Source: Deltaproteobacteria bacterium | Lineage (GTDB): Bacteria > Myxococcota_A > Polyangia > Fen-1088 | Assembly (NCBI GenBank): GCA_033763315.1 | Contig: JANRKS010000040.1 | Coordinates: 192,001-256,000, forward strand | DNA length: 64,000 bases | Direction of reading: 5' to 3' | Shown here: positions 32,358 to 57,223 of the stretch, piece after piece | How the letters are laid out: the number at the start of each line of letters is the position of its first letter | Numbering within the stretch: position 1 is the first letter of the stretch | Translations under genes and position numbers: made by a program | The notes under the pieces: generated by a model | Told to the model about the DNA's origin: nothing | The model's input: the letters and a program-made list of their open reading frames with translations, nothing else | The model's database searches: none

Positions 32358-33727
32358 TGAAAACGATTCAGCCCGTGCGCCTATCTCGACGCTCTGTTTT
32401 GCGCGGCAGTGTGAGTGGCGCCAGCATCATACTCGGGTTGCCCGTGTTGGACGCCATGCTCAATTCACACGGCACGGCCTTGGCGGCAGGCCAAGCTTTC
32501 CCCGTGCGCATGGGCGTGTGGTTCTGGGGCAACGGTGTGCGTCTTTCTAAATGGAATCCCACAGCCACGGGGACCAACTGGCAGCTTTCCGAAACGCTGG
32601 CGCCCTTCGCCAACGTCAAAGCCAAGATGACGGTGGTATCGGGCATGAATGTAAAGACGCCCGACCTGCGCGCGCATCACTCGGGGCAAGCGGCGATTTT
32701 GACCGGCGCACCACCCTTGGCGCAGGCGCCAAAGAACGGCGCGCCGTTCGCATCCACGTTCCGCACGGCATCGATTGATCAAATGGCCGCCGCGGTGATC
32801 GGCACACAATCAAAGTTCCGTTCGCTTCAAGTGGGCGTTTCAAACAACGCCAACCGTGGTGAAGGCACCAACCTGCAGCACATTTCGCACAACGGGCCCG
32901 ACAACGCCAACCCTTCTGAATACGACGCGCCCAAGGTCTTCAATCGCCTGTTTTCGGGCCCCCTGCCAACTTCCACGCCCAGCACGCCCGCGCCTGCCGA
33001 TATGACGCTGGCGTTGCGCAAATCCGTACTTGATGCCGTCTTGGCGGATATGAACGCGCTGAAAGCAAAGGTGGGCAGCAACGACCGAAAGCGGTTGGAA
33101 CAACACGCAGAGAACGTGCGGGCGATTGAGCTGCGCCTCGCGGCGCCCAACGGCGGCGGAAGCGTCAGCCTGTCTGCATGCAAAAAGCCTGCAACACCGG
33201 GTGCCCCCAACAGCGTCTCCAGTCGCAACCAGATGATGGCGGATCTCATGGTGATGGCGCTCGCGTGCGATCTAACGCGGGTGTTTACGTATCAATTCAG
33301 CTCAGGCGTTGATTCGACGATTTACAGCGAAGCGGGCGTCAATGGGACGCATCATCAACTGACGCACGACGAAGGCGGCGATCAACCGAATGTGCAGAAG
33401 ATCTGCGTGTTCATGATGAAGCAGTTCGCCTATTTCGCGGAACGGCTGGCGGGCGTGCAAGAGGGCGATAAGACCCTGCTCGACAACTGCAGCATCTTGG
33501 GCACAACGGATTGCGCCGAAGGCCAGCCCCATTCACTGACGGACTACCCGATGATACTGATGGGCGGCGCGGGCGGACGGCTGAAAACCGGATTGCACTA
33601 CCGCTCGAACGGCGAGAACGCCACGATGGTGTTGATGTCGGTGCTCAAGTCTGTGGGTGCCCCTTTGGCAGAACTTGGCGCCGGCAACGGCAAAGCCACC
33701 ACGGGCTTGGCGGCGATCGAAGCCTAA
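32357..33727 (+). CDS. DUF1552 (HxxxH) family Tat-exported protein
   Basis: SRRSVLRG Tat motif, LPVLDAM, SIDQ, ALACDLTRV, HHQLTH, EGDKTLLDN; ATG 32357 overlaps the upstream TGA. Confidence 0.9.
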   Translation: MKTIQPVRLSRRSVLRGSVSGASIILGLPVLDAMLNSHGTALAAGQAFPVRMGVWFWGNGVRLSKWNPTATGTNWQLSETLAPFANVKAKMTVVSGMNVKTPDLRAHHSGQAAILTGAPPLAQAPKNGAPFASTFRTASIDQMAAAVIGTQSKFRSLQVGVSNNANRGEGTNLQHISHNGPDNANPSEYDAPKVFNRLFSGPLPTSTPSTPAPADMTLALRKSVLDAVLADMNALKAKVGSNDRKRLEQHAENVRAIELRLAAPNGGGSVSLSACKKPATPGAPNSVSSRNQMMADLMVMALACDLTRVFTYQFSSGVDSTIYSEAGVNGTHHQLTHDEGGDQPNVQKICVFMMKQFAYFAERLAGVQEGDKTLLDNCSILGTTDCAEGQPHSLTDYPMILMGGAGGRLKTGLHYRSNGENATMVLMSVLKSVGAPLAELGAGNGKATTGLAAIEA

Positions 33728-36114
33728 GAAGCCGAGCGAATCGTGGCGCCGCTTTCAGCTGTGGCGGGTGGAGGCGGCAGCGGCACAAAGTCAGTGTGCG
33801 GATCAAAACCCGGGCCGGCACAGAACACGCGCAGTAGGCCTTCCTGATCCGCATCTTGCGGCGGATGCTGCCAGCGCGCGCAAAAGCGCAACCAACCGGG
33901 CGTCGCTGGTCGACGTGGGTGCACCACAACCCACCTTTCTGGCAAGTGGCCCAAGCTTTCAACGTAGGATTCTGACGCCAGCGCGGCGATGTAGCCGCGC
34001 CTGAGCAGACGAACGCAAAAGTCTTCCACCTCGCCGCCTCCGTCCGCATAGTTTGGATCAAAGCCACCCACGTCATTGATGAGCCCACGCCGCACGAGAA
34101 AGCAGAAGCCGCCAAAGCGCGGCATCGCTCCAAACGCCGCGAAATGGTTTGCGCGGCGGTGATCGGCAAAGGTGGCGATCGTGTCGGGGGTGTCGAAGTA
34201 CTTTGGCCGCGCGCCTCGTTGCGGGCGAGGCCCCACATTTGACACCGGGCACACGACGCCAATGTTTGGGTTCACCCGCATCAACGCAAGCATCGGCAAA
34301 AGCCAGCCCTTGGTCACAACCACGTCGCCGTTCATCACAATGATGTTTTGTGCTGTGGCCATGGCCAAGCCTTCGTTGACGCTCACAGGAAAGCTGCGTG
34401 GCCTTTCATGTCGCACGAACGTGGCGCGTGCCGCTGTGGTGGCCAACACCTTGTCAAAGCATGCACGTAAGGATTCGGCAGAGCCATCGTCGATGACGAT
34501 AAGCTCAAGGCGGGCCTGCGTGTGCTGCAGCAGTGCCTGCAGCGCCTGCGTGAAGGCCACTTCGCCATCGCGCGCGACCATGATCACAGAGACGTCTTCG
34601 GCGCGGGGGTCATCGCATGCGGCGCTGAGGTTCATGAGATACTGCTTGCGTGGTTGCATGCCGCTGTCGGGAAACACCTGCAGAAACGGATAAACCGTGA
34701 CGTCCCGTGCGGCAGACATGGCAAGGCCACGCTCGCCCAAGAGCCGCGACCAAACCTGCGGATGGCCACCAGGCACACCGTCTGGACGCAGGTCAAGCAG
34801 GGTTTCCAGCAGCTCGCGTTGCGCCAGCACGACGCCGCTTGTGAGAAATGGGGTGGCTTCCAATGTGCCTGGTGGCAACGCTGCCGGCAACGACATGCCG
34901 CCCAGGTGTTTAGGAATCGGGGTGAGCAAATCAGGTGTGAAACGGCAGCCACCATCGGCCTGCGATGCACACACAGCGCCCGCCCGCGGGTTCGCCAAGG
35001 CGTGCGCCACCAACCGATCCAGCCAGCCATCGAGCACGCGCCACGCGCACACCACCACGGCGGCGTAAGGTCGCGTCACTTGCGCAAGACCCGCTTGCCA
35101 AGCCGCGGCCAACCCACGATACGTGGGAAGCCGAATCAAGCGGCACCGGTCCGCATGCGCTTGCGCGAACGTCTCAAGGTACTTGGTTAAGGCACCCACG
35201 CCGCCATCGTCAACCACAATGAGTTGATCCTCGACGCTCAATGTGGCGAATACATTCTCAAGGCAAGGTGGCGCTTCGGTCAGCTGATCGTGAACCGCCA
35301 CAACCACGCTAACGCCCGGGCGCCCCGTGCTCACAGGTATGGGTAGGGCGAGCGTGCGAAAGTCGCTTTCAAAACGATGAAAGCGCCCGATCCATTTGCT
35401 GTTCAAAAGCTCTTCGTTGCGTCCCGAATCGGTGAACCGCCCTTCGCTAAGAGACTCATAGTGTGTGACCACGGCGTGCGGCGTGTAGACCACGCGGTAT
35501 CCCGCCTCGCGCACACGCAAGCACAGGTCCACATCTTCATAGCCCATGCGGAAATCTTCATCGAAACCACCCAGACGTTCGAACAGCTCGCGTGGCATCA
35601 AACTGCATGCGGCCGTAACCGCGTTCAGGTCGAGCATCTTTGTACTGACGTCTGCCGGCTGGCCGTAGTGCATGTGAAAGGGCGAAATCGGCCGTGGCGC
35701 ACAGTAAGAAAACGCGACGCCGGCGTGTTGAATCGTGCCGTTGGGAAACAGCAGCTTGCACCCAACCACGCCCACATTGTCTAAGCCCTCAATGGCGGCC
35801 AACATCTCGTCCAGCCAACGTGCTTGCACTTCGGTGTCGTTGTTCAAGAACAGCAGATACTTGCCTGTGGCCACCCTTGCGGCTCTGTTGTTGTTCCAAG
35901 CAAACCCCCGGTTGGTTTCATTGCGCAAAACGCGAATGCCCTCAAGCAAGGGAAGCCCCGCCTTGGTTTCGTCCGTCGAGGCGTCGTCAACGACGATGAC
36001 TTCGTGAGGGATGTGCGCCGTGTGGCGCATGATCGAAAACAGGCAGCGCAGCGTGTACTCCCACAGGTTGAACACCGGGATGATGATTGAAACCAAAGGC
36101 GCCTGCGCGGACAT
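33724..36114 (-). CDS. Multidomain GT2 glycosyltransferase (three GT-A repeats)
   Basis: VSIIIP..VVDDAS..LNND..EDVDLC; second VSVVV..VVDDG; third VSVIM..IDDGS..MNGD..EDFC. Confidence 0.88.
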   Translation of the reverse strand: MSAQAPLVSIIIPVFNLWEYTLRCLFSIMRHTAHIPHEVIVVDDASTDETKAGLPLLEGIRVLRNETNRGFAWNNNRAARVATGKYLLFLNNDTEVQARWLDEMLAAIEGLDNVGVVGCKLLFPNGTIQHAGVAFSYCAPRPISPFHMHYGQPADVSTKMLDLNAVTAACSLMPRELFERLGGFDEDFRMGYEDVDLCLRVREAGYRVVYTPHAVVTHYESLSEGRFTDSGRNEELLNSKWIGRFHRFESDFRTLALPIPVSTGRPGVSVVVAVHDQLTEAPPCLENVFATLSVEDQLIVVDDGGVGALTKYLETFAQAHADRCRLIRLPTYRGLAAAWQAGLAQVTRPYAAVVVCAWRVLDGWLDRLVAHALANPRAGAVCASQADGGCRFTPDLLTPIPKHLGGMSLPAALPPGTLEATPFLTSGVVLAQRELLETLLDLRPDGVPGGHPQVWSRLLGERGLAMSAARDVTVYPFLQVFPDSGMQPRKQYLMNLSAACDDPRAEDVSVIMVARDGEVAFTQALQALLQHTQARLELIVIDDGSAESLRACFDKVLATTAARATFVRHERPRSFPVSVNEGLAMATAQNIIVMNGDVVVTKGWLLPMLALMRVNPNIGVVCPVSNVGPRPQRGARPKYFDTPDTIATFADHRRANHFAAFGAMPRFGGFCFLVRRGLINDVGGFDPNYADGGGEVEDFCVRLLRRGYIAALASESYVESLGHLPERWVVVHPRRPATPGWLRFCARWQHPPQDADQEGLLRVFCAGPGFDPHTDFVPLPPPPATAESGATIRSAS

Positions 36115-36128: not shown

Positions 36129-36144
36129 AGCAAGGCGGGTGCCA
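36129..36144 (-). promoter_or_regulatory. sigma54 -24/-12 promoter for the triple-GT2 gene
   Basis: Minus strand reads TGGCACCCGCCTTGCT (GG-N10-GC), just upstream of ATG 36114. Confidence 0.8.
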
Positions 36145-36327: not shown

Positions 36328-36343
36328 TGGCATGTCGATTGCT
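36328..36343 (+). promoter_or_regulatory. sigma54 -24/-12 promoter for the deoxysugar operon
   Basis: TGGCATGTCGATTGCT (GG-N10-GC), 26 nt before ATG 36370. Confidence 0.8.
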
Positions 36344-36369: not shown

Positions 36370-36789
36370 ATGAAGCCATCCATCGACAACGTTCGCCTGA
36401 TTGAGCTGCCGTCCCACGCGGATGGCCGCGGCGTCCTTACGTCGATTGAGCAGATGGAGAGCATCCCGATTGAGATCAAGCGCGTGTTCTACATGCACAA
36501 CATCGTTTCGGACCGCGGTGGCCACGCCCACATCGACACAGATCAGGTGATCATCCCACTGCACGGCAGCTTCTGCGTCAACACGTTCGATGGGGAGCGC
36601 GAGCGGGAACATTTCATGGATGACGCCACCCGCGGTCTTTACACGCCCCGCCTGACATTTTTGACCCTGCATCGGTTCTCGCCCGGCGCTGTGTGTTTGG
36701 TGTTGGCCAACACAAGATACGACATGCGCCGCTCGTTGCGGAAGCGGCAAGACTACCTCGATCATTTGGCTCACGCAGGGATGATTTAG
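36370..36789 (+). CDS. FdtA/QdtA/WxcM-like cupin, dTDP-4-keto-6-deoxyhexose 3,4-ketoisomerase
   Basis: D.RG.LT.IE, IP.EIKRVFY, RGGHAH, CLVLA...YD; start moved to 36370 because the promoter lies inside the longer ORF. Confidence 0.85.
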   Translation: MKPSIDNVRLIELPSHADGRGVLTSIEQMESIPIEIKRVFYMHNIVSDRGGHAHIDTDQVIIPLHGSFCVNTFDGEREREHFMDDATRGLYTPRLTFLTLHRFSPGAVCLVLANTRYDMRRSLRKRQDYLDHLAHAGMI

Positions 36790-36791
36790 TC

Positions 36792-38222
36792 ATGTCGTAC
36801 GGCGTGGTTCGCGGCGGCTTTTTCCATTCGTCCTTGGCGCACGGCAATCGTTTCCAACCGTTCGACGAATTCCTCGCTTGGTTCCACAGCAAGCTGACAG
36901 TCGGACACTTCTCGGTCGTGCGGGCTCCCCTTGACCAACTGGACATGTGGCAATTCGAAGGCGACCGCGACGTGCTTCGGCATACGTCTGGGAGGTTCTT
37001 CCGCATCGAAGGTTTGCGCGTGCGCACGACGTTCGGCAGCACCCCCACCTGGGATCAGCCCATCATCAATCAGCCCGAGATCGGCATACTGGGGATACTG
37101 ACGAAGGTGTTCGACGGCGTTCGCTATTTTCTTATGCAAGCCAAGATGGAGCCGGGCAATGTGAACGTGCTTCAGCTGTCGCCTACCGTGCAGGCCACCA
37201 AAAGCAACTTCTCTCGCGTGCATAAGGGAAAGCTGCCCGCCTACCTTGAATACTTCGTTGAACGCGGCAAAGCCAAAGTGCTGATCGACCAGCTTCAAAC
37301 CGAGCAAGGTGGGCGATTTCTGCGCAAACGCAACCGAAACATCGTCATCGAAGTGAATGATGAGGTTCCGGTGCACGACGACTTCAAGTGGCTCACCTTG
37401 GCCGAGCTTCGCAAACTTCTGTTGATCGACAACTTCGTCAACATGGACGCGCGCAGTGTTTTATCTACGATACCCATGCTGGACGACGAACAACTTGTTC
37501 GGTTGCGCCACACGGGCATCGAAGGTGTGGTGGCAAACGGCGGGCTTTCGCCCTTGGGCCACAGCATCGTGCAATCGTTGTGCGACGAAACAGATGGCTA
37601 CCGCACCCGCGATGAAGTGATTTCATGGTTCACGGAGCAGCTGGTCCGCTATGAACTGGACGTGCAAAAGGTGCCGCTATCGCAGCTTGACGGCTGGACG
37701 ATCAGCGATTGGGAGATCACGCGCGGGCCACGGTTCTTCAGCGTCATCGGCGTCCGCGTGGAGGCGGGTTCGCGCGAAGTGGCGCGCTGGTCGCAACCAC
37801 TGATTGCTGATGCCCACATTGGCCTCTTGGGCTTCGTCGCCAAGAAGATCAACGGCATACTTCACCTGCTGGTGCAAGCCAAGGTGGAGCCGGGCCACAT
37901 CGACGTGGTGGAGCTGAGCCCCACAGTGTCGTGCTCGAACTATGCAGCGGTGGCTGAGCAGGAGCGACGGCCCGCGTTCTTTGATTACTTCATCGGCGCA
38001 CGGGCCGGCAAGATTCATTTGGACGTTCTGCAATCCGAAGAAGGTGGGCGGTTCTTGGCGCTGCAGAACCGCAACATGCTTGTTGAGGTGGGCGAACACG
38101 AGGCGGTGGATGTTCCGGACAACTTTCTGTGGATGACGCTGTCGCAGATCACCGAGCTCATGCGGCACAGTATGTTTAACATCGAAGCCCGGAGCCTCAT
38201 CTCGGGCCTGGGGTTCGGTTAG
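36792..38222 (+). CDS. NDP-hexose 2,3-dehydratase (EvaA/OleV/TylX3 family)
   Basis: Internal duplication QAK.EPG..LSPTV and Q.E.GGRF....NRN (twice); HTSGRFFRIEG, WDQPIINQPEIGILG, NMDARSVLS. Confidence 0.93.
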   Translation: MSYGVVRGGFFHSSLAHGNRFQPFDEFLAWFHSKLTVGHFSVVRAPLDQLDMWQFEGDRDVLRHTSGRFFRIEGLRVRTTFGSTPTWDQPIINQPEIGILGILTKVFDGVRYFLMQAKMEPGNVNVLQLSPTVQATKSNFSRVHKGKLPAYLEYFVERGKAKVLIDQLQTEQGGRFLRKRNRNIVIEVNDEVPVHDDFKWLTLAELRKLLLIDNFVNMDARSVLSTIPMLDDEQLVRLRHTGIEGVVANGGLSPLGHSIVQSLCDETDGYRTRDEVISWFTEQLVRYELDVQKVPLSQLDGWTISDWEITRGPRFFSVIGVRVEAGSREVARWSQPLIADAHIGLLGFVAKKINGILHLLVQAKVEPGHIDVVELSPTVSCSNYAAVAEQERRPAFFDYFIGARAGKIHLDVLQSEEGGRFLALQNRNMLVEVGEHEAVDVPDNFLWMTLSQITELMRHSMFNIEARSLISGLGFG

Positions 38223-38229: not shown

Positions 38230-39204
38230 ATGCATGTGCTCTTCTTGGGCAATTCGCAGCTGGTCAACCGACGCCTCTTGCCAAGCTTAGCGTCGCTGCC
38301 GCAGATCACGCGCGTGAGCGTGGCACGCTTTGGCGAAAAGCCGTGGCCCACGACGCCGCCGCCCGTGCCGTGCCATCGATATGATGGCTTCGAGGAGGCC
38401 GAACGGCACTGCCAGCCCGACATCGTTTATGTTTCGACTGTCAACAGCGCGCACCACGAATGCGCCGCCCGATGGCTGGAGCGCGGCTGCCACGTGATCG
38501 TGGATAAGCCGGCCACGCTGCGCCCGCAAGACACGCAATCCTTGGTGGCCCTGGCCACCCGGCACAACGTGCTGCTGGCAGAGGCCACTGTTTACACGTA
38601 CCACCCGCAAATCGCCTTGCTGCGGTCGCTTTTTGCACCTGGAGGGCCACGGCAAGCGACGGTGCAATTTGCCTTTCCCCCCCTGGATCCGGGCAACTTT
38701 CGTTACCGTGCAGACCTGGGGGGCGGAGCCGTTCTCGACACCGCCGCTTATGCTGCCTCCGTTGGTCGCGTGTTCTTTGGCAGCCTGCCATCCACCGTGG
38801 CGGCGGTTTGCGGGGAACGTACACCCGAAGGCCTTTGCGTCGCATACAGCACGCTAATGCAATACCCGGGTGGGAAAACGATGATCGGTCACTTCGGGTT
38901 TCGCTCCGAGTACATCAACAGGTTGCACCTCGCAGGCGAAAGCATGAGCGCACAGATCGACCGCGTGTTCACCACACCCGAAGATCTTGGCAACCCGATA
39001 CACGTGCAAAAGCAAAACCTGCGCTCGACGGTCCACGCTGAGCCGGCCAACGCCTTTGCCTGCTTTTTCCGCGCGGTGTTCCGCGCGTTGGAGCAACGCA
39101 GATTTGAAGCGTTCGCTCACGATATGCTTTTCGATGCCACCGTGACCGAGCAGCTGCAGCGGCAGCTTGCCCCAGCCGAAAGAGACGCGACGACATGCCG
39201 ATAA
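38230..39204 (+). CDS. Gfo/Idh/MocA oxidoreductase, probable NDP-hexose ketoreductase
   Basis: VYVST.N..H, HVIVDKP, YHPQ, RY..DLGGGA.LD; follows the 2,3-dehydratase. Confidence 0.8.
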   Translation: MHVLFLGNSQLVNRRLLPSLASLPQITRVSVARFGEKPWPTTPPPVPCHRYDGFEEAERHCQPDIVYVSTVNSAHHECAARWLERGCHVIVDKPATLRPQDTQSLVALATRHNVLLAEATVYTYHPQIALLRSLFAPGGPRQATVQFAFPPLDPGNFRYRADLGGGAVLDTAAYAASVGRVFFGSLPSTVAAVCGERTPEGLCVAYSTLMQYPGGKTMIGHFGFRSEYINRLHLAGESMSAQIDRVFTTPEDLGNPIHVQKQNLRSTVHAEPANAFACFFRAVFRALEQRRFEAFAHDMLFDATVTEQLQRQLAPAERDATTCR

Positions 39205-49679: not shown

Positions 49680-49687
49680 GGCGGTTC

Positions 49688-50743
49688 CTATTCCAGCATA
49701 TCCCAAGTCAATGCCGTGCCCCGCTTTAGCGCCCGCTTGAGCTTCCGCCCCAGCACCTGCTCGAAGTGTTTGGGGGCCATGGCGAACCCCGGACGAATGA
49801 CACGCAAGTTCTGGCGCGTGAGCGGCTCACCCGCGGCCACGTCAGCAACAACATAAAGCGACCGCCGAAACACGCGCGATCCCGCTTCGGCCTTCAATGT
49901 GCCGTACCTCACCTCACCCAACGCCTGCCAGGCACGTTCGGTTTCCACCACCAACGACGCCATTTCAGCAGGCTCAAGCGAAAACGTGGAATCCACCCCG
50001 CCATCGCGCCTCGCCAGCGTGAAGTGCTTCTCCACCACGGTGGCCCCCAGCGCCACCGCCGCCACCGCCGCGCCCACACCCATGGTGTGATCCGAAAGAC
50101 CCACTTCCACATCGAACAACTGGCGCAAATGAGGAATCGTTCGCAGGTGCGAGTTCAGCGGTGTTGCTGGATAGGTGCTCGTGCATTTGAGCAAAATAAG
50201 GTCCCGGCAACCGCCCGCGCGAGCCGTGGTCACCATCTCTTCAAGTTCGGCCAAACTGGCCATGCCGGTGGAGATGATCATCGGCTTGCCCGTGCCAGCC
50301 ACCTTGCGGATCAAAGGCAGATCGGTGTTCTCGAACGAGGCAATCTTGTAGCAAGGCACCGCAAGCGATTCCAAGAAATCAACCGCCGTTTCGTCGAACG
50401 GGGTGGAGAAACACAGCATGTTGCGTTCAGCGGCCCGCGCAAAAAGTGCCGCGTGCCAATCCCATGGCGTGTGTGCTTCTTGGTAAAGCTCGTACAGGGA
50501 GCGCCCCGCCCACAGACTCTTCGGATCGTTGATGCGAAAATCGCCCTCATCAAGATCTATGGTCATCGTATCGGCGGTGTACGTTTGCAGCTTGATCGCA
50601 TGGGCACCCGCGTCGGCCGCGGCGTCTACGATGGCCAACGCCCGCTCAAGCGATTGGTTGTGGTTGCCCGACATTTCAGCGATCACAAACGGCGCGTGAG
50701 CGAGGCCCACGGCGCGCGACCCGATGTGCAAGGTTTTGCTCAT
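49688..50743 (-). CDS. pseI: Pseudaminic acid synthase
   Basis: IAEMSGNHNQSLERA, KLQTYTADTMT, YKIASFE, GLSDHTMG, EKHFTL.R.DGGVDS.FSLEP, C-terminal SAF domain; start 50743. Confidence 0.93.
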   Translation of the reverse strand: MSKTLHIGSRAVGLAHAPFVIAEMSGNHNQSLERALAIVDAAADAGAHAIKLQTYTADTMTIDLDEGDFRINDPKSLWAGRSLYELYQEAHTPWDWHAALFARAAERNMLCFSTPFDETAVDFLESLAVPCYKIASFENTDLPLIRKVAGTGKPMIISTGMASLAELEEMVTTARAGGCRDLILLKCTSTYPATPLNSHLRTIPHLRQLFDVEVGLSDHTMGVGAAVAAVALGATVVEKHFTLARRDGGVDSTFSLEPAEMASLVVETERAWQALGEVRYGTLKAEAGSRVFRRSLYVVADVAAGEPLTRQNLRVIRPGFAMAPKHFEQVLGRKLKRALKRGTALTWDMLE

Positions 50744-51462
50744 GCTTTCCCCGTGTTCTCCAAATGGCGCCCCACCATGAATGCTTCGGCCGCCTCCATG
50801 CCCACAGAAGCGCCCCGCCATAGGGCAAGATGGGTCACGGCTTCAATCGATCGCGCGTGTGGCCAGGCACGCATCTCGCTGCTGTAGCACCGTAAGGCCT
50901 CTTGCTTGCGTGGCAAGGTGGCGCCAACGTCCACAAACCACGTGGGCACAAATGGTGCGCTCGCAGGATTCCATTCGGTGCTCGACGGCACTTCAAAGAA
51001 CAGCAAGGTTTGCACAAAGAAGCCCGGCTGCGGGCGGCAAGCCGTCACCACTGCGTTGTGCACGCACGCGTGATCCACATTGAGATCCGATCGATTGTGC
51101 GTGTAAACCACCGCGGGCCGGTGCGTGGCTAAAAATGCTTCCACCACTTTAACAACGTCGAGAAGCGCCACAGTGTCCATGCGGTTGTCGGGAAAGTCGT
51201 GCAACACCAACGATGACGTTCCCAACACAGCATGCGCGGCTTCGGCCGCCTGCCGCAGTTGAGAAAGGCCGCTTTTGTGCGCCCCCACGTCGCGCGTGGG
51301 ATCTCGGCTCGTCAGCCCTTCCGCCAAAATGAGCACCGCCACGGTATCGCCCTCGGCAACGTGGCGAGCGATCACGCCGCCGCACCCCAACACTTCGTCA
51401 TCGGGGTGTGCCGCGATCACAGCCACGCGGCGAGGGCCTTTGTTGTTGACGATGGAGCTCAT
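50740..51462 (-). CDS. PIG-L/LmbE family N-deacetylase
   Basis: AAHPDDEVLGCGG, FPDNRMD, DLNVDH, FEVPSSTEW; start at 51462 or 51486. Confidence 0.9.
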   Translation of the reverse strand: MSSIVNNKGPRRVAVIAAHPDDEVLGCGGVIARHVAEGDTVAVLILAEGLTSRDPTRDVGAHKSGLSQLRQAAEAAHAVLGTSSLVLHDFPDNRMDTVALLDVVKVVEAFLATHRPAVVYTHNRSDLNVDHACVHNAVVTACRPQPGFFVQTLLFFEVPSSTEWNPASAPFVPTWFVDVGATLPRKQEALRCYSSEMRAWPHARSIEAVTHLALWRGASVGMEAAEAFMVGRHLENTGKA

Positions 51463-51482
51463 GAAAATCTGTGCCTTTGCCT

Positions 51483-52172
51483 TCAAGAGCCTTTGGGTTT
51501 GGGCACCACGCGCACCTGTGCCGTCAGCGATTCGCCCTGCAGGCTGGCATGGCTGAACTCGAACCTCAAGAATTCCGTTTCGATGAACGCCGCTGGATAC
51601 CCCGGGGCGTCCAACATGCGTATGAAGTCGTACGCGGCGTCAATCGATGTGACTTGCGCCATTTCACTTTCGTGCGGCCTGCGCCGGGCGAACGCCACGG
51701 CCTCTCCGGTTTGCGGCATCGGTGTTGGCCTCGTCGCCACAATTTCCGCAATCATGTCCTCGATGAGATGGGTGCCGCGGATGTAGATCTCTTCCGCGCG
51801 CCCCGCAAGCGAAAGCGGCCGCTTGAGGTAGACAGGCCCTGTATCGAGCCCCGCCTCACAGCGCAGCGCCGTCATCTGAGTGTCCTGCACGCCACGCACC
51901 AACAGGTTCTGCAGGGGGCTGCCGCCGCGGCCAAACGGCACGTCGGTCATGTGGAAGATCACGCACGTAAACGTGTCAAACACGCTGGCGGGGATCCGAT
52001 GAGACCAGTGCGGAAAGAACACCCAGTCGGGCGCGAACGCCTTCAGCGCCTCCGCGGTGAGCTGTTCGGGAGCGGTGATGTGCCTTGTGACGGCGCCGCA
52101 CCTGGCAGCCACGCGCTCGGCAAGGCCGGGCACCCAATCCCTCGAAGTGGCGATGACGATCCGTGGCTTCAT
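51483..52172 (-). CDS. Formyltransferase (Fmt-like)
   Basis: FFPHWS, VIFHMTDVPFGRGGSPLQNL, LDTGPVY, YDFIRMLDA.GYP.AF. Confidence 0.88.
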   Translation of the reverse strand: MKPRIVIATSRDWVPGLAERVAARCGAVTRHITAPEQLTAEALKAFAPDWVFFPHWSHRIPASVFDTFTCVIFHMTDVPFGRGGSPLQNLLVRGVQDTQMTALRCEAGLDTGPVYLKRPLSLAGRAEEIYIRGTHLIEDMIAEIVATRPTPMPQTGEAVAFARRRPHESEMAQVTSIDAAYDFIRMLDAPGYPAAFIETEFLRFEFSHASLQGESLTAQVRVVPKPKGS

Positions 52173-53902
52173 GACGACCGCCGGTCCTTCTCAATACGCA
52201 ACACGTACCGCACACCGTGGTGATCGAAGAACGCAGGATAGGCGTCGTTGTCCACCACCCGCAGCAAGTTGAATTGTTCAGCCAACGTGAGCGCAGGATC
52301 GAGGCGGCTGTCTTCGGCGCGCCTTCGGGGATAGGTGCTTGGGGTGCCCCTTTGCTCGCACGCCGTTTGTACAGCCTCGGGGTAATTCTGCACCCACCAC
52401 TGGCACAGGCGCAACGTAGCCTCGGCTTGCAAGGCGCGCAACTCATCGACCAGCTCATGACCTTGCAGCTGCATTTGGGTCTGCGCATAGATCGGCCCGC
52501 TGTCCACGCTGAGCTGTGCCTCGAACAAAGTTACGGGTATGCAAGCCTTGCCCTCAAGAACTTGCCACGTCATCGGTGACCAGCCACGGCCGCGTGGCAG
52601 ATCACTTTCATGCACCACCACATTGTGCACGTTTCGCGCAAGAATCGCCGCGCCAGCCAGCTGGCCGCAACTCAAGAACAGCGCACAATCGCCCATCCCC
52701 AGCGCGTTGACTTGATGCACCCACGTCACCTCGTGGCCAGCCGCCTTCCACCCATCAAGCAAAGGTGGCAGAAAGCGGTTAAGCCAGCTGTGCTCATCGG
52801 AAACAACGTTTAAGCGGAGGCGACGATCAAGCGCCGCCGCCGCGCGCGCGGCGCCCTGCCCGTCGACCAGACGCTGGCCTCGTTGCGACAGGCGCGCAAG
52901 CAACGAGGGCCGCGCCAGCATTCGCGCGATGGCCGAGGCCACAGCGTCAATGGTCAGAGCCTCCGCGTTCCCCAAAAACCACGCAAACCGTTCGGCACCC
53001 GCGCCCTTGCCAATCTCTATCTGGTTGTGGGCGATCGCAATCAGGATCGCAGGCAGCCCCAAACAGCACCGTTCCCACGTGGAGATGCCTGGGGCGCCAA
53101 TCATAAGATCCGCTGCCTGCATCAACGCCGCCATCTGGTCCGTCTGCACGTGAAGTTGCGCACGGGGCAAAGCCGCGCACAAGCGCGCCACCTCTTCCGC
53201 CTGCGGGTGGCTCTTGCCGATCACCACATCGATGTGAAGGTTCTCGCTCGCCACACGCTGCAGGGCCTGCAGCACCAAGCCAGTGACGTTGTGTGGATCG
53301 CCCCCGCCCAGGCTCACCAGCAAGCGACGCGCACTTACGGCTGGGTGTGGCCACAGGCGCGGCTTTTGGCGCCGCAGCTCGAGAAACGCGGGCCGCAACA
53401 GTGCAAAACGTGGCCCCAGCAACAGCCGACAATTCGTGGGCACAAGGCCCTCGTAACGGCGGGGTTGCAACTGCAAATTGGCGTCCAGCAGAACATCGGC
53501 GTCGTGAGGGCGATCGGCCAAATCGTCGATCACAGCCACTTGCTGCGCAAAGGCACGCAGGTTCCGCTCAGCACGCGCGTCGAGCGCGTAGTGATCCACC
53601 ACCGCCCAATCCCAGCTTGACAAGGACCCAAGCGCAGCGTTGACCTGTTGCACTTCTTCGTCGAGGCTCGCGCCTAACCAGCGTGCGTGTCGTGGCCCCG
53701 CCGCCGTCGGATTGCCCAAAGGCAAAGCAATCACTTCAAACCCTTGCGCCTTCACATGCTCGGAAAAGTGCCCAGGATGCAGCCGCGACAGAAACACAAC
53801 TTGGGCACCGCGTGCCCGCAAAGCGGCTGCCAGCGCCAAGCAGCGCATGACGTGGCCAGAGCCAATCTCGGTCGAGGCGTCAGCCCTGACCAAAACCCTC
53901 AT
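52169..53902 (-). CDS. pseG: PseG UDP-sugar hydrolase fused to a C-terminal formyltransferase domain
   Basis: RADAS.EIGSGHVMRCL.LA, VDHY, IDDLADR, LGGGD, G.STWERCCLGLP, DGQGA; then VHESDLPRGRGWSP, VDSGPIY, FNLLRVVDN..YPAFF. Confidence 0.88.
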   Translation of the reverse strand: MRVLVRADASTEIGSGHVMRCLALAAALRARGAQVVFLSRLHPGHFSEHVKAQGFEVIALPLGNPTAAGPRHARWLGASLDEEVQQVNAALGSLSSWDWAVVDHYALDARAERNLRAFAQQVAVIDDLADRPHDADVLLDANLQLQPRRYEGLVPTNCRLLLGPRFALLRPAFLELRRQKPRLWPHPAVSARRLLVSLGGGDPHNVTGLVLQALQRVASENLHIDVVIGKSHPQAEEVARLCAALPRAQLHVQTDQMAALMQAADLMIGAPGISTWERCCLGLPAILIAIAHNQIEIGKGAGAERFAWFLGNAEALTIDAVASAIARMLARPSLLARLSQRGQRLVDGQGAARAAAALDRRLRLNVVSDEHSWLNRFLPPLLDGWKAAGHEVTWVHQVNALGMGDCALFLSCGQLAGAAILARNVHNVVVHESDLPRGRGWSPMTWQVLEGKACIPVTLFEAQLSVDSGPIYAQTQMQLQGHELVDELRALQAEATLRLCQWWVQNYPEAVQTACEQRGTPSTYPRRRAEDSRLDPALTLAEQFNLLRVVDNDAYPAFFDHHGVRYVLRIEKDRRSS

Positions 53903-55059
53903 GCGCCGCTTTCCTTGATCGCCTCTTTTAAGGCTGCGATGCACACGTCTTGCTCGGCAAAAGACAACGACGCATAAAGCGGCATAGATATCGCCTCGGC
54001 ATAGTAGCGTTCCGCTTCAGGAAACATGCCGTCACGGAAGCCCAACGCCATAAAGTCAGGCTGCGTATGCACGGGGATGTAGTGCACATTCACGCCGATG
54101 TCAGCCGCGCGCAATGACTCGAAGATCTCTCGCCGCTGTGCCGCCGGCACGCGCACCACGAACAGATGCCACGAAGGGTCGGCATCGGAATGAACACCCT
54201 GCACGTGCACAAGGGTGTGTGCCAGGGCGGCGCGATAGCGTTCCACCAACACGCGGCGGCGGGTCACGAATGTTTGCAGCCGGTGCATTTGGCTTGCGCC
54301 CAACGCCGCCTGGATGTCGGTCATGCGGTAGTTGAAGCCAAGCTCAACCTGCTGGTAATACCAAGGGCCATGCGACTCCCCCTGCATCAGCGCACGCTCG
54401 CGCGTGATGCCATGGGTTCGCAGCCGCAATAGGCGTTCGAACAACGCTTGGCTCTTCGTGACCACCACGCCGCCTTCGCCCGTGGTCACGATCTTGACCG
54501 GATGAAAGCTGAAGATGGTGGCATCGGAGTGATTGCAGTTGCCTACGGGTGCGCCCTTGTAACTCGCGCCAATGGCATGCGAAGCGTCTTCCAGCAAGCG
54601 AAAGCCGTAACGGTCTGCCAATGCGGCAAACTCGGCCATCGGGCAGGACTGCCCCGCGAAGTGCACGGGGATCACAAGCTTTGGCATCAGCCCGCCGCTG
54701 CGCTGCGTGCGTTCGAGCTTGTCCGCCAAGGCGGCCACGCTCATATTCAAGGTTGCTGGATCAATATCCACGAAGTCCACACGTGCGCCGCAGTAGCGCG
54801 CGCAGTTGGCGCTCGCCACAAACGTATTGGGCGACGTCCACACCATATCCCCTGGCCCCACGTCCATCGCCAAACAAGCCAAATGCAAGGCCGCGGTGGC
54901 AGAGCTCACGGCCACGGCGAAAGGCACCGCGGCGGCCTGCGCCACAGCCGTCTCAAAACGCGCGATCGCTGGACCCTGCGTAAGCCAATCCGAACGCAAC
55001 ACCGCCTCCACGGCTTCAATGTCGTCGTCATCAATGGACTGGCGTCCGTACGGGATCAT
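53899..55059 (-). CDS. pseC: UDP-4-amino-4,6-dideoxy-N-acetyl-beta-L-altrosamine transaminase
   Basis: MIPYGRQSI..DDI, LTQGP, SFHPVKIVTTGEGG, LGFNYRMTDIQAALG. Confidence 0.95.
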   Translation of the reverse strand: MIPYGRQSIDDDDIEAVEAVLRSDWLTQGPAIARFETAVAQAAAVPFAVAVSSATAALHLACLAMDVGPGDMVWTSPNTFVASANCARYCGARVDFVDIDPATLNMSVAALADKLERTQRSGGLMPKLVIPVHFAGQSCPMAEFAALADRYGFRLLEDASHAIGASYKGAPVGNCNHSDATIFSFHPVKIVTTGEGGVVVTKSQALFERLLRLRTHGITRERALMQGESHGPWYYQQVELGFNYRMTDIQAALGASQMHRLQTFVTRRRVLVERYRAALAHTLVHVQGVHSDADPSWHLFVVRVPAAQRREIFESLRAADIGVNVHYIPVHTQPDFMALGFRDGMFPEAERYYAEAISMPLYASLSFAEQDVCIAALKEAIKESGA

Positions 55060-56054
55060 AGGGCGGATCCGTTAAACTCTTTCAGCTCAGCGGTGGTCAA
55101 GAAGTGCGGGTTCGTATCGGAGGCATATTTGAAGCCTTCGTCCACGGGCTTGCCACTTTCACCTAGGGCATTGGTGGAAAACTCCGTGACGTTTGCCAGC
55201 TGCAGCGTGGGAGCGATGACGAAGTGATCTGCAAACTCATACGTGTGTGTGCTGTCGTCGCGGGAGATCATCGTCTCATGCAGCTTTTCACCGGGACGAA
55301 TGCCGATCACACGGTGAGGCATCCCAGGAGCGATTGCCTCCACCAAATCCAAGATGCGCACGGAAGGAATTTTCGGCACGAAGATCTCGCCGCGCCGCAT
55401 GCGTTGAAAATTCTTTAGAACGAAATCTACGCCGACCTGCAGCTTCAGCCAAAAGCGGGTCATGCGTGGATCAGTCACCGGCAGGACTGTGGCGCCTTCG
55501 GCAACCAAGCGCTTGAAGAACGGCACCACCGACCCGCGCGAGCCCACGACGTTGCCATACCGAACCACGGCAAAACGCGTGCGGTGCGTGCCAACGATGT
55601 TGTTGGCCGCCACAAACAACTTATCGGAAAGCAGCTTGGTGGCCCCGTAAAGGTTGATAGGGCTTGAGGCTTTGTCGGTGGATAGGGCGATCACCTTCTC
55701 AACACCGTTTTCGATGGCCGCGGCGATCACGTTTTCAGCACCCGAAACGTTGGTACGAATAAACTCGGTGGGATTGTATTCAGCCGCCGGCACTTGTTTG
55801 AGCGCGGCCGCGTGAACCACAAAATCGACGTCGCGCATGGCTTGGCGCAAGCGGGCGGCGTCGCGAACGTCACCCAAGAAGTAACGCATACAAGGTGCAT
55901 TGAACTCCTGCGACATATCGAACTGTTTCAGCTCGTCGCGCGAGAACACCACCACGCGCCGGGGCTTGTAGCGTTGCAAAATGGTGCGAATGAATTTTTG
56001 ACCAAAGGATCCCGTGCCACCCGTGATCAAGATCGACTTCTCGTTAAGCATCAC
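55056..56054 (-). CDS. pseB: UDP-N-acetylglucosamine 4,6-dehydratase (inverting)
   Basis: ITGGTGSFG, SRDELKQ, HAAALKQVPAAEYNP, LYGATKL.SDK, RYGNVVGSRGSV, GIRPGEKLHE. Confidence 0.97.
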   Translation of the reverse strand: MMLNEKSILITGGTGSFGQKFIRTILQRYKPRRVVVFSRDELKQFDMSQEFNAPCMRYFLGDVRDAARLRQAMRDVDFVVHAAALKQVPAAEYNPTEFIRTNVSGAENVIAAAIENGVEKVIALSTDKASSPINLYGATKLLSDKLFVAANNIVGTHRTRFAVVRYGNVVGSRGSVVPFFKRLVAEGATVLPVTDPRMTRFWLKLQVGVDFVLKNFQRMRRGEIFVPKIPSVRILDLVEAIAPGMPHRVIGIRPGEKLHETMISRDDSTHTYEFADHFVIAPTLQLANVTEFSTNALGESGKPVDEGFKYASDTNPHFLTTAELKEFNGSAL

Positions 56055-56095: not shown

Positions 56096-57223
56096 TCAAA
56101 CCTGGAAATCGCCTTCCAAATAGAAAACTGAATTAAACGTCTTCGCAAACAGCCGGTACCCCTGCGCTCGCATGAAGCCGTGCACGGTTGAACCCAACAC
56201 GGCTGCGACATCCGACTGCAAACACTCCACCACCACACACTGCGGGCGAAAGCGTTCCCAATCGTTTGATTCAAGTACCTTCAGGTCCAAGCCTTCCACG
56301 TCCACCGACATGAAGTGGATGGGCGCCCCAGGTACCAAGCACTGATCCAGGAGATCGGCCAGCGGCACCACATCCAGCTCGCGTGTTTGCACAACGTGGT
56401 ACGCCCCACTCTCGCGGCTACGGGTCAGCTCTTCATCGAACGAATTCAATGCGGGATCATTGAACATGTAATACGTGAGCTTGCCGTAGACGTTCGAAAC
56501 ACCGCAGGCAACGTTCACGTCCCCGGGCCGCACGGCAGCGAACGCCGCCATAAGTTCGGGGTTTGGCTCAATGTTTACGCCCCGCCAGCCTTGCAGATAG
56601 AACCGGTGCGTGTTCGAGAAGCGCAAGGGGTGATGCGCGCCCACGTCCACGTAAAGCCCCAACTTCTGCCGGTCGAATAGGCGCGCCAGAACAAGGTCCT
56701 CGCCCTCCTGGCTGTAAGACACGTTCATAAACTCTGTGTGGGGATGGCTCGTCACCGCGTGAGTTGGAACAGCTAAACGGGGACCACTGTAGATCAGAGG
56801 CTTATCGAGTAGGCCCAGACGTGACACGGCTTGCTCCGGTTGAGCCGCCAAAGCCGCCATCAGGCCCACCACCTGCACATCGAACGGATGACGACGCAAG
56901 AACGTTTGCACCACGTCTGACGCCCGTTCGGGTGCCCCCGCGTTCATGAAACACAACGCCAACAACGCCACGCTTACAGCGTTGTCAGGCTCCAGCTCTA
57001 GGGCCCGCGCCAGCGCAGCGGCCGCGGTATCAAAGTCAGGCGACCGAAGGATGGGTAGTTTACCGCCGGCCGCACGACACAACGACCACGCCAGACCGTG
57101 GTAGGCATGCACGTCGCGCTCGTTTTCTTTGCACGCCTGCAAGAACCGTTCGGCGGCTTTGGCATAGTCGTGCCGGGCCAGTAAGGCGCGCGCCTCAACC
57201 AGCGTGGGGGTTCGTGCAAGCAT
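56096..57223 (-). CDS. TPR + FkbM family methyltransferase
   Basis: TPR helices (ARALELEPDN); SYSQEGED, YVDVGAHHP..FSNT, SVDVEG.DL.VL.SNDW. Confidence 0.88.
   Translation of the reverse strand: MLARTPTLVEARALLARHDYAKAAERFLQACKENERDVHAYHGLAWSLCRAAGGKLPILRSPDFDTAAAALARALELEPDNAVSVALLALCFMNAGAPERASDVVQTFLRRHPFDVQVVGLMAALAAQPEQAVSRLGLLDKPLIYSGPRLAVPTHAVTSHPHTEFMNVSYSQEGEDLVLARLFDRQKLGLYVDVGAHHPLRFSNTHRFYLQGWRGVNIEPNPELMAAFAAVRPGDVNVACGVSNVYGKLTYYMFNDPALNSFDEELTRSRESGAYHVVQTRELDVVPLADLLDQCLVPGAPIHFMSVDVEGLDLKVLESNDWERFRPQCVVVECLQSDVAAVLGSTVHGFMRAQGYRLFAKTFNSVFYLEGDFQV

Follow-up and report, generated by a model that had tools for sequence, protein, structure and literature searches.

We describe an island of 18 contiguous genes, a 23.5-kb block at positions 33724-57223 of the window (the whole 64-kb stretch of DNA that was analyzed). 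In the reading that we prefer, to which we give an even chance, it is a sigma-54-controlled and wholly cytoplasmic glycan-building system whose acceptor is most likely the flagellin FliC, so that the island would serve flagellin O-glycosylation. The genes were assigned from the open reading frame (ORF) listing, Pfam and NCBIfam, and fall into five strand blocks, namely g01 (-), g02-g06 (+), g07 (-), g08-g10 (+) and g18 to g11 (-), within which neighboring genes abut or share a few bases. An earlier note on this DNA had proposed 17 contiguous genes in five units; the contiguity and the units agree with the ORF listing, but an FdtA-like gene at 36370-36789 had been overlooked and the count is 18. 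Each of the functions claimed at that time (sugar synthesis, transfer, methylation, formylation and oxidation) has corresponding domains, oxidation through a weak Pfam match that is backed by the protein atlas. The synthesis genes comprise PseB, PseC, PseG and PseI, all above the NCBIfam equivalog cut-offs, a 2,3-dehydratase (481 bits), a GFO/MocA reductase, a DegT aminotransferase and FdtA. Transfer domains are found in g01 (two GT2), g06 (GT2), g09 (GT-B) and g11 (GT-B), together with three FkbM and one class I SAM methyltransferase domains and two Fmt-like domains for formylation. The island is a mosaic of a pseudaminic acid (Pse) block and deoxysugar/glycosyltransferase genes; the antibiotic-type deoxysugar and modified Pse pathways named earlier are recognizable in its 2,3-dehydratase branch and in its Pse equivalogs with Fmt-like and PIG-L proteins.

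Domain scores in the last block show a set of enzymes, PseB, PseC, PseG and PseI, that together would make a pseudaminic acid. Gene g17 (55056..56054, -) encodes the inverting 4,6-dehydratase PseB (TIGR03589, 544.2 bits; cut-off 407.75), g16 (53899..55059, -) the aminotransferase PseC (TIGR03588, 518.7 bits; cut-off 423.5), and g12 (49688..50821, -) the pseudaminic acid synthase PseI (TIGR03586, 495.7 bits; cut-off 340.25). The UDP-sugar hydrolase PseG (g15, 52169..53944, -; TIGR03590, 301.7 bits; cut-off 153.55) carries a formyltransferase-like domain at 406-582, and g14 (51483..52172, -) is a formyltransferase-like protein of 229 aa (PF21553, E 2e-20; PF00551, E 4e-5). PIG-L family de-N-acetylases like g13 (50740..51486, -; PF02585, E 9e-25) have an Fmt-like gene and PseI as neighbors in the genomes G010, G004 and G025 and in a Nitrospira MAG. 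Pfam detected no GNAT domain in the island that could represent the PseH N-acetyltransferase, and a GNAT on contig C7 reaches 31.6 bits against a cut-off of 93.1; the two Fmt-like domains may replace PseH. The island also contains no PseF CMP-sugar synthetase, and contig C7 encodes a protein that joins a CTP_transf_3 domain with a class III aminotransferase (113.9 bits), a fusion that recurs inside a related island in G016.

Gene g11 (47919..49706, -) encodes a Pfam-less protein of 595 aa that is a candidate CMP-nonulosonate (Pse) transferase by its AF2 model, motif and neighborhood. The model (pLDDT 93.3) has a GT-B fold whose top structural match is KpsC (6mgd_B, Z 12.8, rmsd 4.8, 267 residues aligned; 6mgb, Z 11.7, rmsd 4.6, 292 aligned), and a sequence-profile search of the PDB returned no match. 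Likeness to the KpsC beta-Kdo transferases (GT107; 6mgd, 6mgb) is confined to the fold: their lead over generic GT-B folds is just ~1.5 Z, identity is 9-14%, and g11 is extended at its C-terminal end by a helical region. The GT107 family has an HP motif and takes its sugar from a CMP-ulosonic acid. In g11 the motif R347-V-H349-P350-R-E-F, with its VHPREF core, is invariant in 43 sequences; an HP motif in a GT-B fold is also the mark of sialyltransferase-like and GT107-like CMP-ulosonic acid transferases, and g11 may use a donor of this kind. The family has 561 relatives at E <= 0.001 in many phyla, with no Pfam domain. For comparison of the Pse module across genomes we used 80 g11-family loci from many phyla.

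The remainder of the mosaic begins with g01 (33724..36114, -), a protein of 796 aa with two GT2 glycosyltransferase domains (PF00535, E 8e-59, in three stretches), the first stretch at 9-180 and the second GT2-like region at ~499-720. It is followed by g02 (36370..36789, +), an FdtA/WxcM-like cupin of the sugar 3,4-ketoisomerase type (139 aa; PF05523, E 3.5e-29), homologues of which recur at 9 of the 80 loci, mostly beside DegT and g10-like matches. Gene g03 (36792..38222, +; 476 aa from the ATG at 36792) encodes an NDP-hexose 2,3-dehydratase of the EvaA type (PF03559, E 2e-145), with 481.5 bits in two stretches that correspond to two Nudix-like halves. The GFO/IDH/MocA oxidoreductase g04 (38230..39204, +; PF01408, PF22725) is likely a sugar 3-ketoreductase from its position after the dehydratase, and g05 (39195..40301, +) is a DegT/DnrJ/EryC1 sugar aminotransferase (PF01041, E 6e-112). 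We considered g05 as a second PseC and rejected it at 269.8 bits, below the cut-off of 423.5. In g06 (40305..41567, +) a helical, faintly TPR-like N-terminus (1-135) precedes a GT2 domain (PF00535 at 142-251). The 415-aa product of g07 (41592..42839, -) is a candidate PhyH-like Fe(II)/2-oxoglutarate dioxygenase; its PF05721 match (E 1e-3) is below the cut-off, and the protein atlas gives a feature score of 0.98 to PhyH-carrying clusters. Genes like g07 occur together with g08-like and NeuB genes at 10/80 loci.

Gene g08 (43073..43999, +) encodes an FkbM-family methyltransferase (PF05050, E 1.5e-11) whose orthologues in G016 and G004 are 66% identical and adjoin PhyH-like genes. The 721-aa protein g09 (44006..46171, +) combines a short TPR region, a GT4-like GT-B domain and a class I SAM methyltransferase (PF14559, PF13524, PF08241). 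Its AF2 model (pLDDT 85.9) places five N-terminal helices at 19-103, where TPR_19 matches with E 1.3e-4, and the GT-B domain at 122-476, which aligns with PimA over 304 residues (Z 24.2, rmsd 4.0). The N-terminal half of g10 (46168..47922, +) precedes an FkbM methyltransferase (PF05050 at 400-548); residues 1-341 have no match in Pfam or, by sequence, in the PDB, and a DxD-like motif spotted by eye is the sole basis for supposing that they are perhaps a glycosyltransferase. The two halves match separate ORFs elsewhere, the N-terminal half mostly in ORFs of ~310-360 aa. Finally, g18 (56096..57223, -) has a TPR N-terminus (~11-131; PF14559, E 2e-10) before its FkbM domain (PF05050, E 4e-19).

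Several of these enzymes had been credited with TPR-like N-termini, which stand out in g18 (TPR_19, E 2.3e-10), can be recognized in g09 and are only faint in g06 (TPR_30, E 0.0047). Sequence comparison identifies the TPR N-termini as additions to these enzymes, because homologues elsewhere do without them: all 31 g18-like matches in the 80 loci start at query residue >=133, mostly in ORFs of 227-280 aa, and all five g06-like matches begin at query residue 131-139.

Motifs of the sigma-54 (-24/-12) type stand before four of the five blocks, as the earlier note had stated, at 15-27 nt from the start codon. A perfect consensus, TGGCACCCGCCTTGC (36130..36144, -), lies 15 nt before the g01 ATG, and a second, TGGCACCCCTTTTGC (42859..42873, -), 19 nt before the g07 ATG at 42839. 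The motif before g02, TGGCATGTCGATTGC (36328..36342, +; 27 nt before the ATG), has one mismatch, and that before g08, CGGCATTGGATTTGC (CGGCAT-N5-TTGC; 43043..43057, +; 15 nt before the ATG at 43073), has two mismatches with GG and GC kept. All four sites thus have GG at -24, GC at -12, fixed spacing and the right strand, and rpoN is present in the genome on contig C6; the fifth unit has a poor match only, with the -12 GC missing. The window holds only two perfect copies of TGGCAC-N5-TTGC (0.36 expected; 5 of 100 shuffles reach two), both before island genes (g01 and g07) and on the correct strand. Among 3184 unit starts in the genome, 6.9% have a site with <=2 mismatches and 1.9% one with <=1 mismatch, against which background the chance probability is ~1e-4 for four of five unit starts and 6e-5 for three of five, figures that are post hoc and use crude gene calls. 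Two of the motifs are conserved in the same-genus genome G001, where the g01 orthologue (50% identical) carries TGGCTTGGTCCTTGC 16 nt before its ATG. Because the four motifs span both modules, they argue for co-regulation of the Pse and deoxysugar genes. Sigma54_activat has 59 matches in the genome, 51 of them at E < 1e-40, and no match in the window; sigma-54 control is not flagella-specific, because about 51 activator genes are present. Motifs of this type also precede flagellar rod genes in this genome and in G010, G011 and G013, and none was seen at fliC itself.

On the Kyte-Doolittle scale, the most hydrophobic 19-residue stretch stays at or below 1.8 in every island protein, against 2.05 in the neighboring channel gene, and all 18 proteins are predicted to be soluble, with no clear membrane segment. 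We found no Wzx, Wzy, ABC-2, WaaL or phosphoglycosyl-transferase domain in the 18 island genes and the 24 flanking ORFs scanned, which upholds the earlier statement that wzx, wzy, wzm/wzt, waaL and an initiating transferase are missing. The island and its scanned flanks therefore lack the flippase or ABC transporter and the initiating transferase of an exporter-type locus, and a cytochrome c maturation set at 18630-20037 accounts for all ABC transporter genes that we saw in the window. The flanks consist of DUF1552/DUF1592 genes, a K+ channel and proteins without known function. No candidate acceptor gene was found in the island or among these ORFs, and no flagellar genes were found in the window.

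The genome itself encodes a complete-looking flagellar cluster with one flagellin of 274 aa and a conserved GT2 adjoining fliS. The flagellin lies on contig C23 and the island on contig C40, so that adjacency fails here; the two contigs are alike in composition (r 0.99). A genome check proposed with the earlier note returned a flagellin and about 51 sigma-54 activator (bEBP) genes but no maf gene: the MAF_flag10/MptE-like domain (PF01973) has no match in this genome, which is 90.85% complete. In the same-family genome G010, a contiguous cluster of the same enzyme families (TPR-GT41, Glyco_trans_1_2 with TPR, PseC, PseB, a g11-family GT-B, Fmt-like, PIG-L, PseI and PseG) ends directly at fliC-fliD-fliS, upstream of fliC. 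Its Fmt-like, PIG-L and PseI proteins are 52%, 48% and 56% identical to those of the island, and its GT-B protein matches g11 by hhalign (probability 99.6%, E 1.8e-23). PseI/B/C and a cytidylyltransferase adjoin flagellin genes in G037 and G031. All six carriers of g09 orthologues among the family genomes have flagellin, which is weak evidence as they represent only three genera. PseI scores above its cut-off with no flagellin match in the relatives G020 (93% complete) and G035 (74% complete), and the related island in G016 follows ftsZ and is not flagellar. The claim of flagellin-type protein glycosylation thus stands in part: the soluble enzyme set, the TPR regions, the sigma-54 motifs and the G010 cluster at fliC favor it, and the unlinked contigs, the missing Maf and the 80 module loci, none of which has a flagellin gene beside the g11/Pse module, do not.

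Under the flagellin reading, the Pse block would yield an N-formyl (7-N-formyl type), possibly re-acylated Pse derivative, to be activated by the CTP-transferase/aminotransferase fusion from contig C7 and transferred by the KpsC-like, HP-motif GT-B protein g11, which would most likely add it to another sugar as a cap. The FdtA-like protein, 2,3-dehydratase, GFO reductase and DegT enzyme would convert an NDP-4-keto-6-deoxyhexose into a 2-deoxy amino sugar. The GT2 domains of g01 and g06, the GT4-like g09 and perhaps the N-terminal half of g10 could then assemble an oligosaccharide, which the four methyltransferase domains and the PhyH-like dioxygenase would decorate. The TPR N-termini of g09, g18 and g06 would dock these enzymes on the protein substrate, and the sigma-54 promoters would couple expression to some activator. 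A flippase would be unneeded because, in this proposal, the glycoprotein leaves through the flagellar export apparatus.

The docking step has its model in FlmG of Caulobacter crescentus, in which, according to PMC7591256, the TPR domain binds flagellin and the GT-B domain transfers Pse. The flm system resembles the island in its cytoplasmic Pse synthesis (FlmA/B/D, NeuB), with no export genes (PMC7591256; 10.1101/2022.03.25.485807), in short flagellins of ~270 aa, and in the placement of glycosylation genes here and there at a distance from those for flagellin (same sources). With an N-terminal TPR and a C-terminal GT-B domain in one soluble protein, g09 is likened to FlmG by domain layout (PMC7591256), but its TPR region is short (~85 residues, against 313 in FlmG) and it also bears a methyltransferase. 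Unlike flm, the island runs to 18 genes, adds a deoxysugar branch to the Pse pathway, has four methyltransferase domains, and puts formyl/deacetylase steps in the place of PseH. A second candidate for this layout is a separate TPR and GT9-like protein of 583 aa, on contig C32 and away from flagellar genes; the name FlmG occurs in none of the 120 best of its 5956 TPR-GT9-like relatives.

Less probable, though the strongest competitor, is a lipid-linked surface glycan (LPS O-antigen, capsule/EPS, or an oligosaccharide for a periplasmic oligosaccharyltransferase) that would be methylated, capped with Pse by g11 and exported by unlinked genes. In other phyla the same module usually lies beside exporters. 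A NeuB gene occurs within 10 kb of the g11 homologue at 52 of the 80 loci, and an ABC, Wzx or Wzt gene at 37 of 80, or at 29 of the 52 loci with full 10-kb flanks. An ABC half-transporter follows the g11 homologue in Kofleriaceae, Nitrospira and Pseudanabaena loci, a Bacteroidetes locus has a Wzx gene, and a Nomurabacteria locus has a Wzt C-terminal domain. Four of five module-bearing genomes tested (Saccharibacteria, Pseudanabaena, Bacteroidetes and Nomurabacteria MAGs) have no flagellin that we could find. The Pse block is a widespread mobile module, present also in lineages without flagellin and often next to ABC/Wzx exporters, and the earlier description of the system as undescribed does not hold. 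Six or so glycosyltransferase domains would also fit an oligo- or polysaccharide, and several MsbA-like ABC genes elsewhere in the genome could serve for export. Against this, the exporter, initiating transferase, polymerase and ligase are all absent from the island and the 64-kb window; the module-linked ABC transporters, which share 50-72% identity among Kofleriaceae loci, have no orthologue in this genome (best match 37%, ATPase half only); it is hard to see what the TPR additions would do on a lipid-linked substrate; and the G010 cluster adjoins fliC.

The relatives of g11 bear on the same question. The only characterized ones, by family name (Tanf_01245/BFO_1060) and by fold (KpsC, an enzyme acting on a lipid acceptor), use lipid-linked acceptors. 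We tried g11 as a member of the BFO_1060 family (NF046086) and rejected it, since its 28.6 bits fall short of the cut-off of 200 (E 7e-7, residues 335-432 only); it also has 595 aa against ~445 aa in the Tannerella transferases. Tanf_01245/TFUB4_00887 of Tannerella forsythia nevertheless resembles g11 in its gene position, directly after the CMP-Pse genes and next to a methyltransferase, and in its HP motif, its GT-B prediction and its addition of Pse as a terminal cap, the role proposed for g11 (PMC5420450). In contrast to what we propose for g11, that Pse/Leg transferase serves a lipid-linked, flippase-dependent general O-glycosylation pathway (PMC5420450).

A more ambitious form of the flagellin reading, which we advance tentatively and consider rather unlikely, holds that the widespread exporter-linked module was acquired by this lineage and rewired to glycosylate proteins directly in the cytoplasm. 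In other genomes its genes (for Pse, for the HP-motif GT-B protein g11, which has no Pfam domain, and for an FkbM methyltransferase) would cap lipid-linked glycans; here the ABC flippase would have been lost, TPR docking domains grafted onto enzymes, and the genes put under sigma-54 promoters. Relative to the module elsewhere, the island is peculiar in its absent exporter, in two enzymes with TPR N-termini that homologues lack, and in its 2,3-dehydratase branch. If rewiring took place, the g11 family would join Maf and FlmG as a third class of nonulosonate transferase acting on flagellin, and an antibiotic-type 2-deoxy amino sugar would sit on the flagellar filament. The flagellin reading, if true, would itself mean that a mobile sugar-capping module that served lipid-linked export was turned to decorating proteins directly, through transporter loss and gain of protein-docking (TPR) domains, and it would point to g11 as a nonulosonic acid transferase, few of which are known (PMC5420450). 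Current views are not overturned, as all the elements are already established: islands for flagellin glycosylation, Pse pathways, and the control of flagellar genes by sigma-54.

Flagellin glycosylation islands with GT2-TPR or GT41-TPR proteins include that of Listeria (GmaR) and those of Pseudomonas aeruginosa and P. syringae (viosamine-type sugars). They share with the present island soluble sugar-nucleotide enzymes, TPR-bearing transferases, deoxy-amino sugars and O-methylation on flagellin, but they adjoin flagellin genes and the island here does not. We know of no 2,3-dehydratase in flagellin glycosylation islands.

It is improbable that the island glycosylates a non-flagellin protein in the cytoplasm (an adhesin, pilin, porin or spore/coat protein), or that two unrelated modules with separate acceptors are parked together. 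The mosaic structure would suit such an origin: Pse-block proteins are closer to those of other phyla (g11 43-46%, PseB ~70%) than to those of the family (g11 24-29%, PseB 53-57%), and homologues of g01 and g06 occur in G001, where Pse genes are absent. The GT domain of g09 is of the Pfam family Glyco_trans_1_2, one homologue being labeled CgeB-like in its JGI annotation, and the TPR and GT9-like protein on C32 is likewise far from flagellar genes. Neither version, however, finds a candidate acceptor gene in or beside the island, and the four sigma-54 motifs span both modules.

Decoration of a small-molecule natural product by the branch g02-g06 is very improbable, for although characterized 2,3-dehydratases stem from antibiotic pathways (PMC8987622) and g03 is the sole such gene among 89 family genomes, PKS, NRPS or other scaffold genes are missing from the window ORFs scanned, the neighboring transferases belong to GT2 and GT4-like types and not to the GT1 type of natural products, and the branch has sigma-54 motifs and tight spacing in common with the glycan genes. 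In antibiotic 2,6-dideoxy and 3-amino-2,3,6-trideoxy sugar pathways (EvaA, TylX3, OleV, SpnO), as here, the gene for the 2,3-dehydratase precedes those for a ketoreductase-type enzyme and an aminotransferase (PMC8987622), but the branch here is without aglycone genes and is surrounded by glycoconjugate genes whose transferases are of GT2/GT4 type. If such a dehydratase works outside antibiotic pathways, the known chemistry of bacterial surface glycans would become broader. An RmlA-like gene on contig C19 (214 bits against a cut-off of 360.65) is a possible nucleotidyltransferase supplying the branch.

The glycosylation island at window positions 33724-57223 holds 18 tightly packed genes (g01-g18, in window order) in five strand blocks, according to an ORF listing and Pfam and NCBIfam searches. 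An earlier note had described 17 contiguous genes; the contiguous set was borne out, but the count rises to 18 with an FdtA/WxcM-like cupin gene, g02 (36370-36789, plus strand; 139 aa, PF05523, E 3.5e-29), whose position places the true start of g03 at the ATG at 36792. The plus-strand deoxysugar block comprises g02, g03 (NDP-hexose 2,3-dehydratase, 481 bits), g04 (GFO/MocA oxidoreductase), g05 (DegT aminotransferase) and g06 (helical N-terminus plus GT2), and is divergent from g01, which encodes a double GT2. In the middle part lie g07, a PhyH-like dioxygenase by a weak Pfam match (E 1e-3) with which protein-atlas clusters agree; g08, an FkbM protein; g09, a short TPR followed by GT-B and SAM methyltransferase domains; and g10, in which FkbM is fused to an N-terminal half without an assigned domain. 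Sequence-profile searches of the PDB returned nothing meaningful for g07 or the N-terminal half of g10. The pseudaminic acid (Pse) block occupies the minus strand and encodes PseB (g17), PseC (g16), PseG fused to a formyltransferase-like domain (g15), a formyltransferase-like protein (g14), a PIG-L deacetylase (g13) and PseI (g12), with PseB, PseC, PseG and PseI all above NCBIfam equivalog cut-offs. A TPR-FkbM methyltransferase gene (g18) stands ahead of this block, and g11, encoding 595 aa without any Pfam domain, follows it. A hydrophobicity scan of the 18 proteins found no convincing membrane segment. As the earlier note had claimed, export and initiation genes are absent: no gene for a flippase, polymerase, ligase, initiating transferase or glycan ABC transporter lies in the island or among the scanned flanking ORFs.

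Four of the five island units carry sigma-54 motifs, as had been proposed. The window contains two perfect TGGCAC-N5-TTGC sites against 0.36 expected, both on the coding strand, 15 nt ahead of the g01 start codon and 19 nt ahead of that of g07. A site with one mismatch precedes g02 by 27 nt, and one with two mismatches but GG/GC kept precedes the g08 ATG by 15 nt; upstream of the fifth unit, which begins with g18, there is no good site. Sites with at most two mismatches occur in the same position range at 6.9% of 3184 unit starts in the genome, which makes four out of five unexpected (P ~1e-4, in a post hoc test on crude gene calls). Across 7.6 Mb, TGGCA[CT]-N5-TTGC occurs 57 times; 23 sites precede a coding-looking ORF and about 10 of these fall at the ORF 5' boundary, three of them in this island. 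The other well-placed perfect sites precede AOX-like, GGDEF, Crp, DUF2171, CBM and unassigned genes, and none precedes a flagellar or glycan gene. The predicted island motifs are conserved in the same-genus relative G001, where TGGCTTGGTCCTTGC lies 16 nt ahead of the ATG of the g01 orthologue and a perfect site lies 14 nt ahead of that of a g06-like GT2-methyltransferase gene. The related island of G016, from the same family, has a single site with at most one mismatch before an island homologue; it is not convincing because it lies only 1 nt from the start codon.

The Pse block resembles a module found in many phyla. A Nitrospira MAG encodes, in matching order, PseB, PseC, a cytidylyltransferase, a 598-aa protein, an Fmt-like protein, PIG-L, PseI and g11, followed by a g07-like gene, an FkbM gene and an ABC transporter gene; the 598-aa protein has no Pfam match and pairs with g15 in tblastn at 45% identity. 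The island g11 shares 43-46% identity with proteobacterial and Nitrospira versions but 24-29% with the four detected in the remaining 88 of 89 family genomes, and PseB shares about 70% with outside versions versus 53-57% within the family. Because both proteins are closer to those of other phyla than to those of their own family, the block was probably acquired horizontally. We examined 80 public-genome loci encoding g11 relatives with ABC half-transporter, Wzx and Wzt queries and found an exporter-type gene in 37, and in 29 of the 52 with full flanks. Flagellin was absent from all 80, and four of five module-carrying genomes tested had no flagellin match. Given these absences and the frequent exporters, the module in general is not a flagellin system.

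We infer that g11 is a candidate CMP-nonulosonate transferase of the Pse block. Its AlphaFold model (43 homologues; pLDDT 93.3) has a GT-B fold, and KpsC beta-Kdo transferases ranked top in the VIA all-against-representatives search (6mgd_B, Z 12.8, rmsd 4.8, 267 aligned; 6mgb_A, Z 11.7), with generic GT-B enzymes next (Z ~11). Foldseek gave generic GT-B matches alone, with low TM-scores, and the g11 profile found nothing meaningful among PDB sequences (best E 0.55). A VHPREF stretch is invariant in the family alignment, and an HP motif is described as common to bacterial sialyltransferases and Tannerella forsythia Pse/Leg transferases (PMC5420450); g11 matches the NCBIfam family of the latter faintly (E 7e-7, far under the cut-off). 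Within 10 kb of the g11 relative, 52 of the 80 loci encode a NeuB/PseI homologue, 48 PseC and 33 PseB.

Which acceptor this island serves is a separate matter, and we give flagellin glycosylation an even chance. Its strongest support comes from G010, of another genus in the family, in which a homologous run (TPR-GT41, Glyco_trans_1_2+TPR, PseC, PseB, g11-family, Fmt-like, PIG-L, PseI, PseG) ends directly at fliC-fliD-fliS. The g11-family member was recognized by hhalign with 99.6% probability, and the OGT/SPINDLY-type TPR-GT41 protein lies at L022:6032-8248 (G010:C4). Pse genes also adjoin flagellins in the relatives G037 and G031. In Caulobacter, the TPR of FlmG is described as binding flagellin and its GT-B domain as transferring Pse, with the genes dispersed (PMC7591256); on this precedent such a system needs neither fliC linkage nor export genes, and the island would resemble it in lacking both.

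Flagellin occurs in 44 of 89 family genomes. This genome has one rpoN copy, about 51 sigma-54 activator genes (51 strong matches) and, on contig C23, whose composition equals that of the island contig C40, a full-looking flagellar cluster that encodes rod, ring and hook-associated proteins, a single 274-aa flagellin, FliD, FliS and a 430-aa GT2. Of the genes the earlier note had proposed seeking, flagellin and activators were found but Maf was not, which counts against flagellin. Also against it, neither this island nor that of G016 is linked to flagellar genes; two of the eight relatives (among 41) with PseI above cut-off have no flagellin match, although six do; sigma-54 control is widespread in this genome; and fliC has no GG-N10-GC motif upstream. 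In favour of it, sigma-54-type motifs precede rod-protein genes here and in three relatives. Phyletic co-occurrence is uninformative: all six hosts of g09 orthologues and all five of g11-like genes are flagellin-positive, but they span three genera while 14 of 19 genera have flagellin. When g09 residues 1-500 and FliC were modelled as a complex from alignments of the two proteins, without controls, the score was 0.00, which speaks neither for nor against the pairing. The 430-aa GT2 (G000:C23:92038-93330, L006:6038-7330, minus strand) weakly matches SunS-type peptide glycosyltransferases, is kept beside fliS in G011 and G013 (45-47% identity), and is likely an island-independent flagellin glycosyltransferase.

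The module's general biology points away from flagellin to lipid-linked glycans, and a lipid-linked surface glycan exported via unlinked genes is the next, less probable reading; a search of the whole genome found no orthologue of the module-linked transporters. That the acceptor is some other protein, or that the island combines two separate modules, is unlikely. A 583-aa protein on contig C32 (G000:C32:476250-478001, L140:10250-12001, minus strand), the sole Glyco_transf_9 match in the genome, carries TPR repeats at its N-terminus and a GT9-like motif at its C-terminus, and is similar in size and layout to Caulobacter FlmG (596 aa). It neighbors a rhamnosidase-like and a PEGA-domain gene, none flagellar, and FlmG by name is absent among the best 120 of its 5956 relatives; the true flagellin transferase may be this protein, or it may act on some other protein. 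That the island makes a natural-product sugar is very improbable, even with a 2,3-dehydratase of a type that PMC8987622 describes from antibiotic pathways.

The earlier note had proposed an undescribed system. The kind of system is already known; what is new is an exporter-less, TPR-tagged, sigma-54-fronted variant with a 2-deoxy sugar branch. That branch is an addition in this island; its 2,3-dehydratase is found in this genome alone among 89 of the family. The N-terminal TPR-type extensions of g18 and g06 are absent from homologues elsewhere: in the 80 loci, matches start past the extension in 31 of 31 cases for g18 and 5 of 5 for g06. The TPR-like N-termini noted before are clear in g18, present but short in g09 (as in some of its metagenomic relatives) and faint in g06, whose extension is helical and TPR-type.

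Contig C7 (G000:C7:93225-96919, L007:9225-12919) probably supplies the CMP-Pse activation step missing from the island. Besides genes for a GNAT acetyltransferase and an aldo/keto reductase, this region has one that joins a cytidylyltransferase to a class III (GSA-type) aminotransferase. The G016 island contains this fusion too, and g11 loci repeatedly include AKR/GNAT homologues. A second nonulosonate-type cluster (G000:C21:84500-90800, L032) encodes a 310-aa NeuB together with a cytidylyltransferase and a class III aminotransferase of its own; a NeuB ORF of equal length is also present in both island-less same-genus genomes.

An inward-rectifier-type (Kir-like) potassium channel gene (window 57341-58255) abuts the island. 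Two genes just downstream of the island encode proteins without a Pfam match at E <=0.01, one of 1165 aa whose N-terminus is hydrophobic (58386-61883) and one of 496 aa (61936-63426). Elsewhere in the window, a cytochrome c maturation cluster includes one 829-aa ORF joining CcmF and CcmH domains (14043-16532), and ccmA/B/C-like genes lie at 18630-20862.
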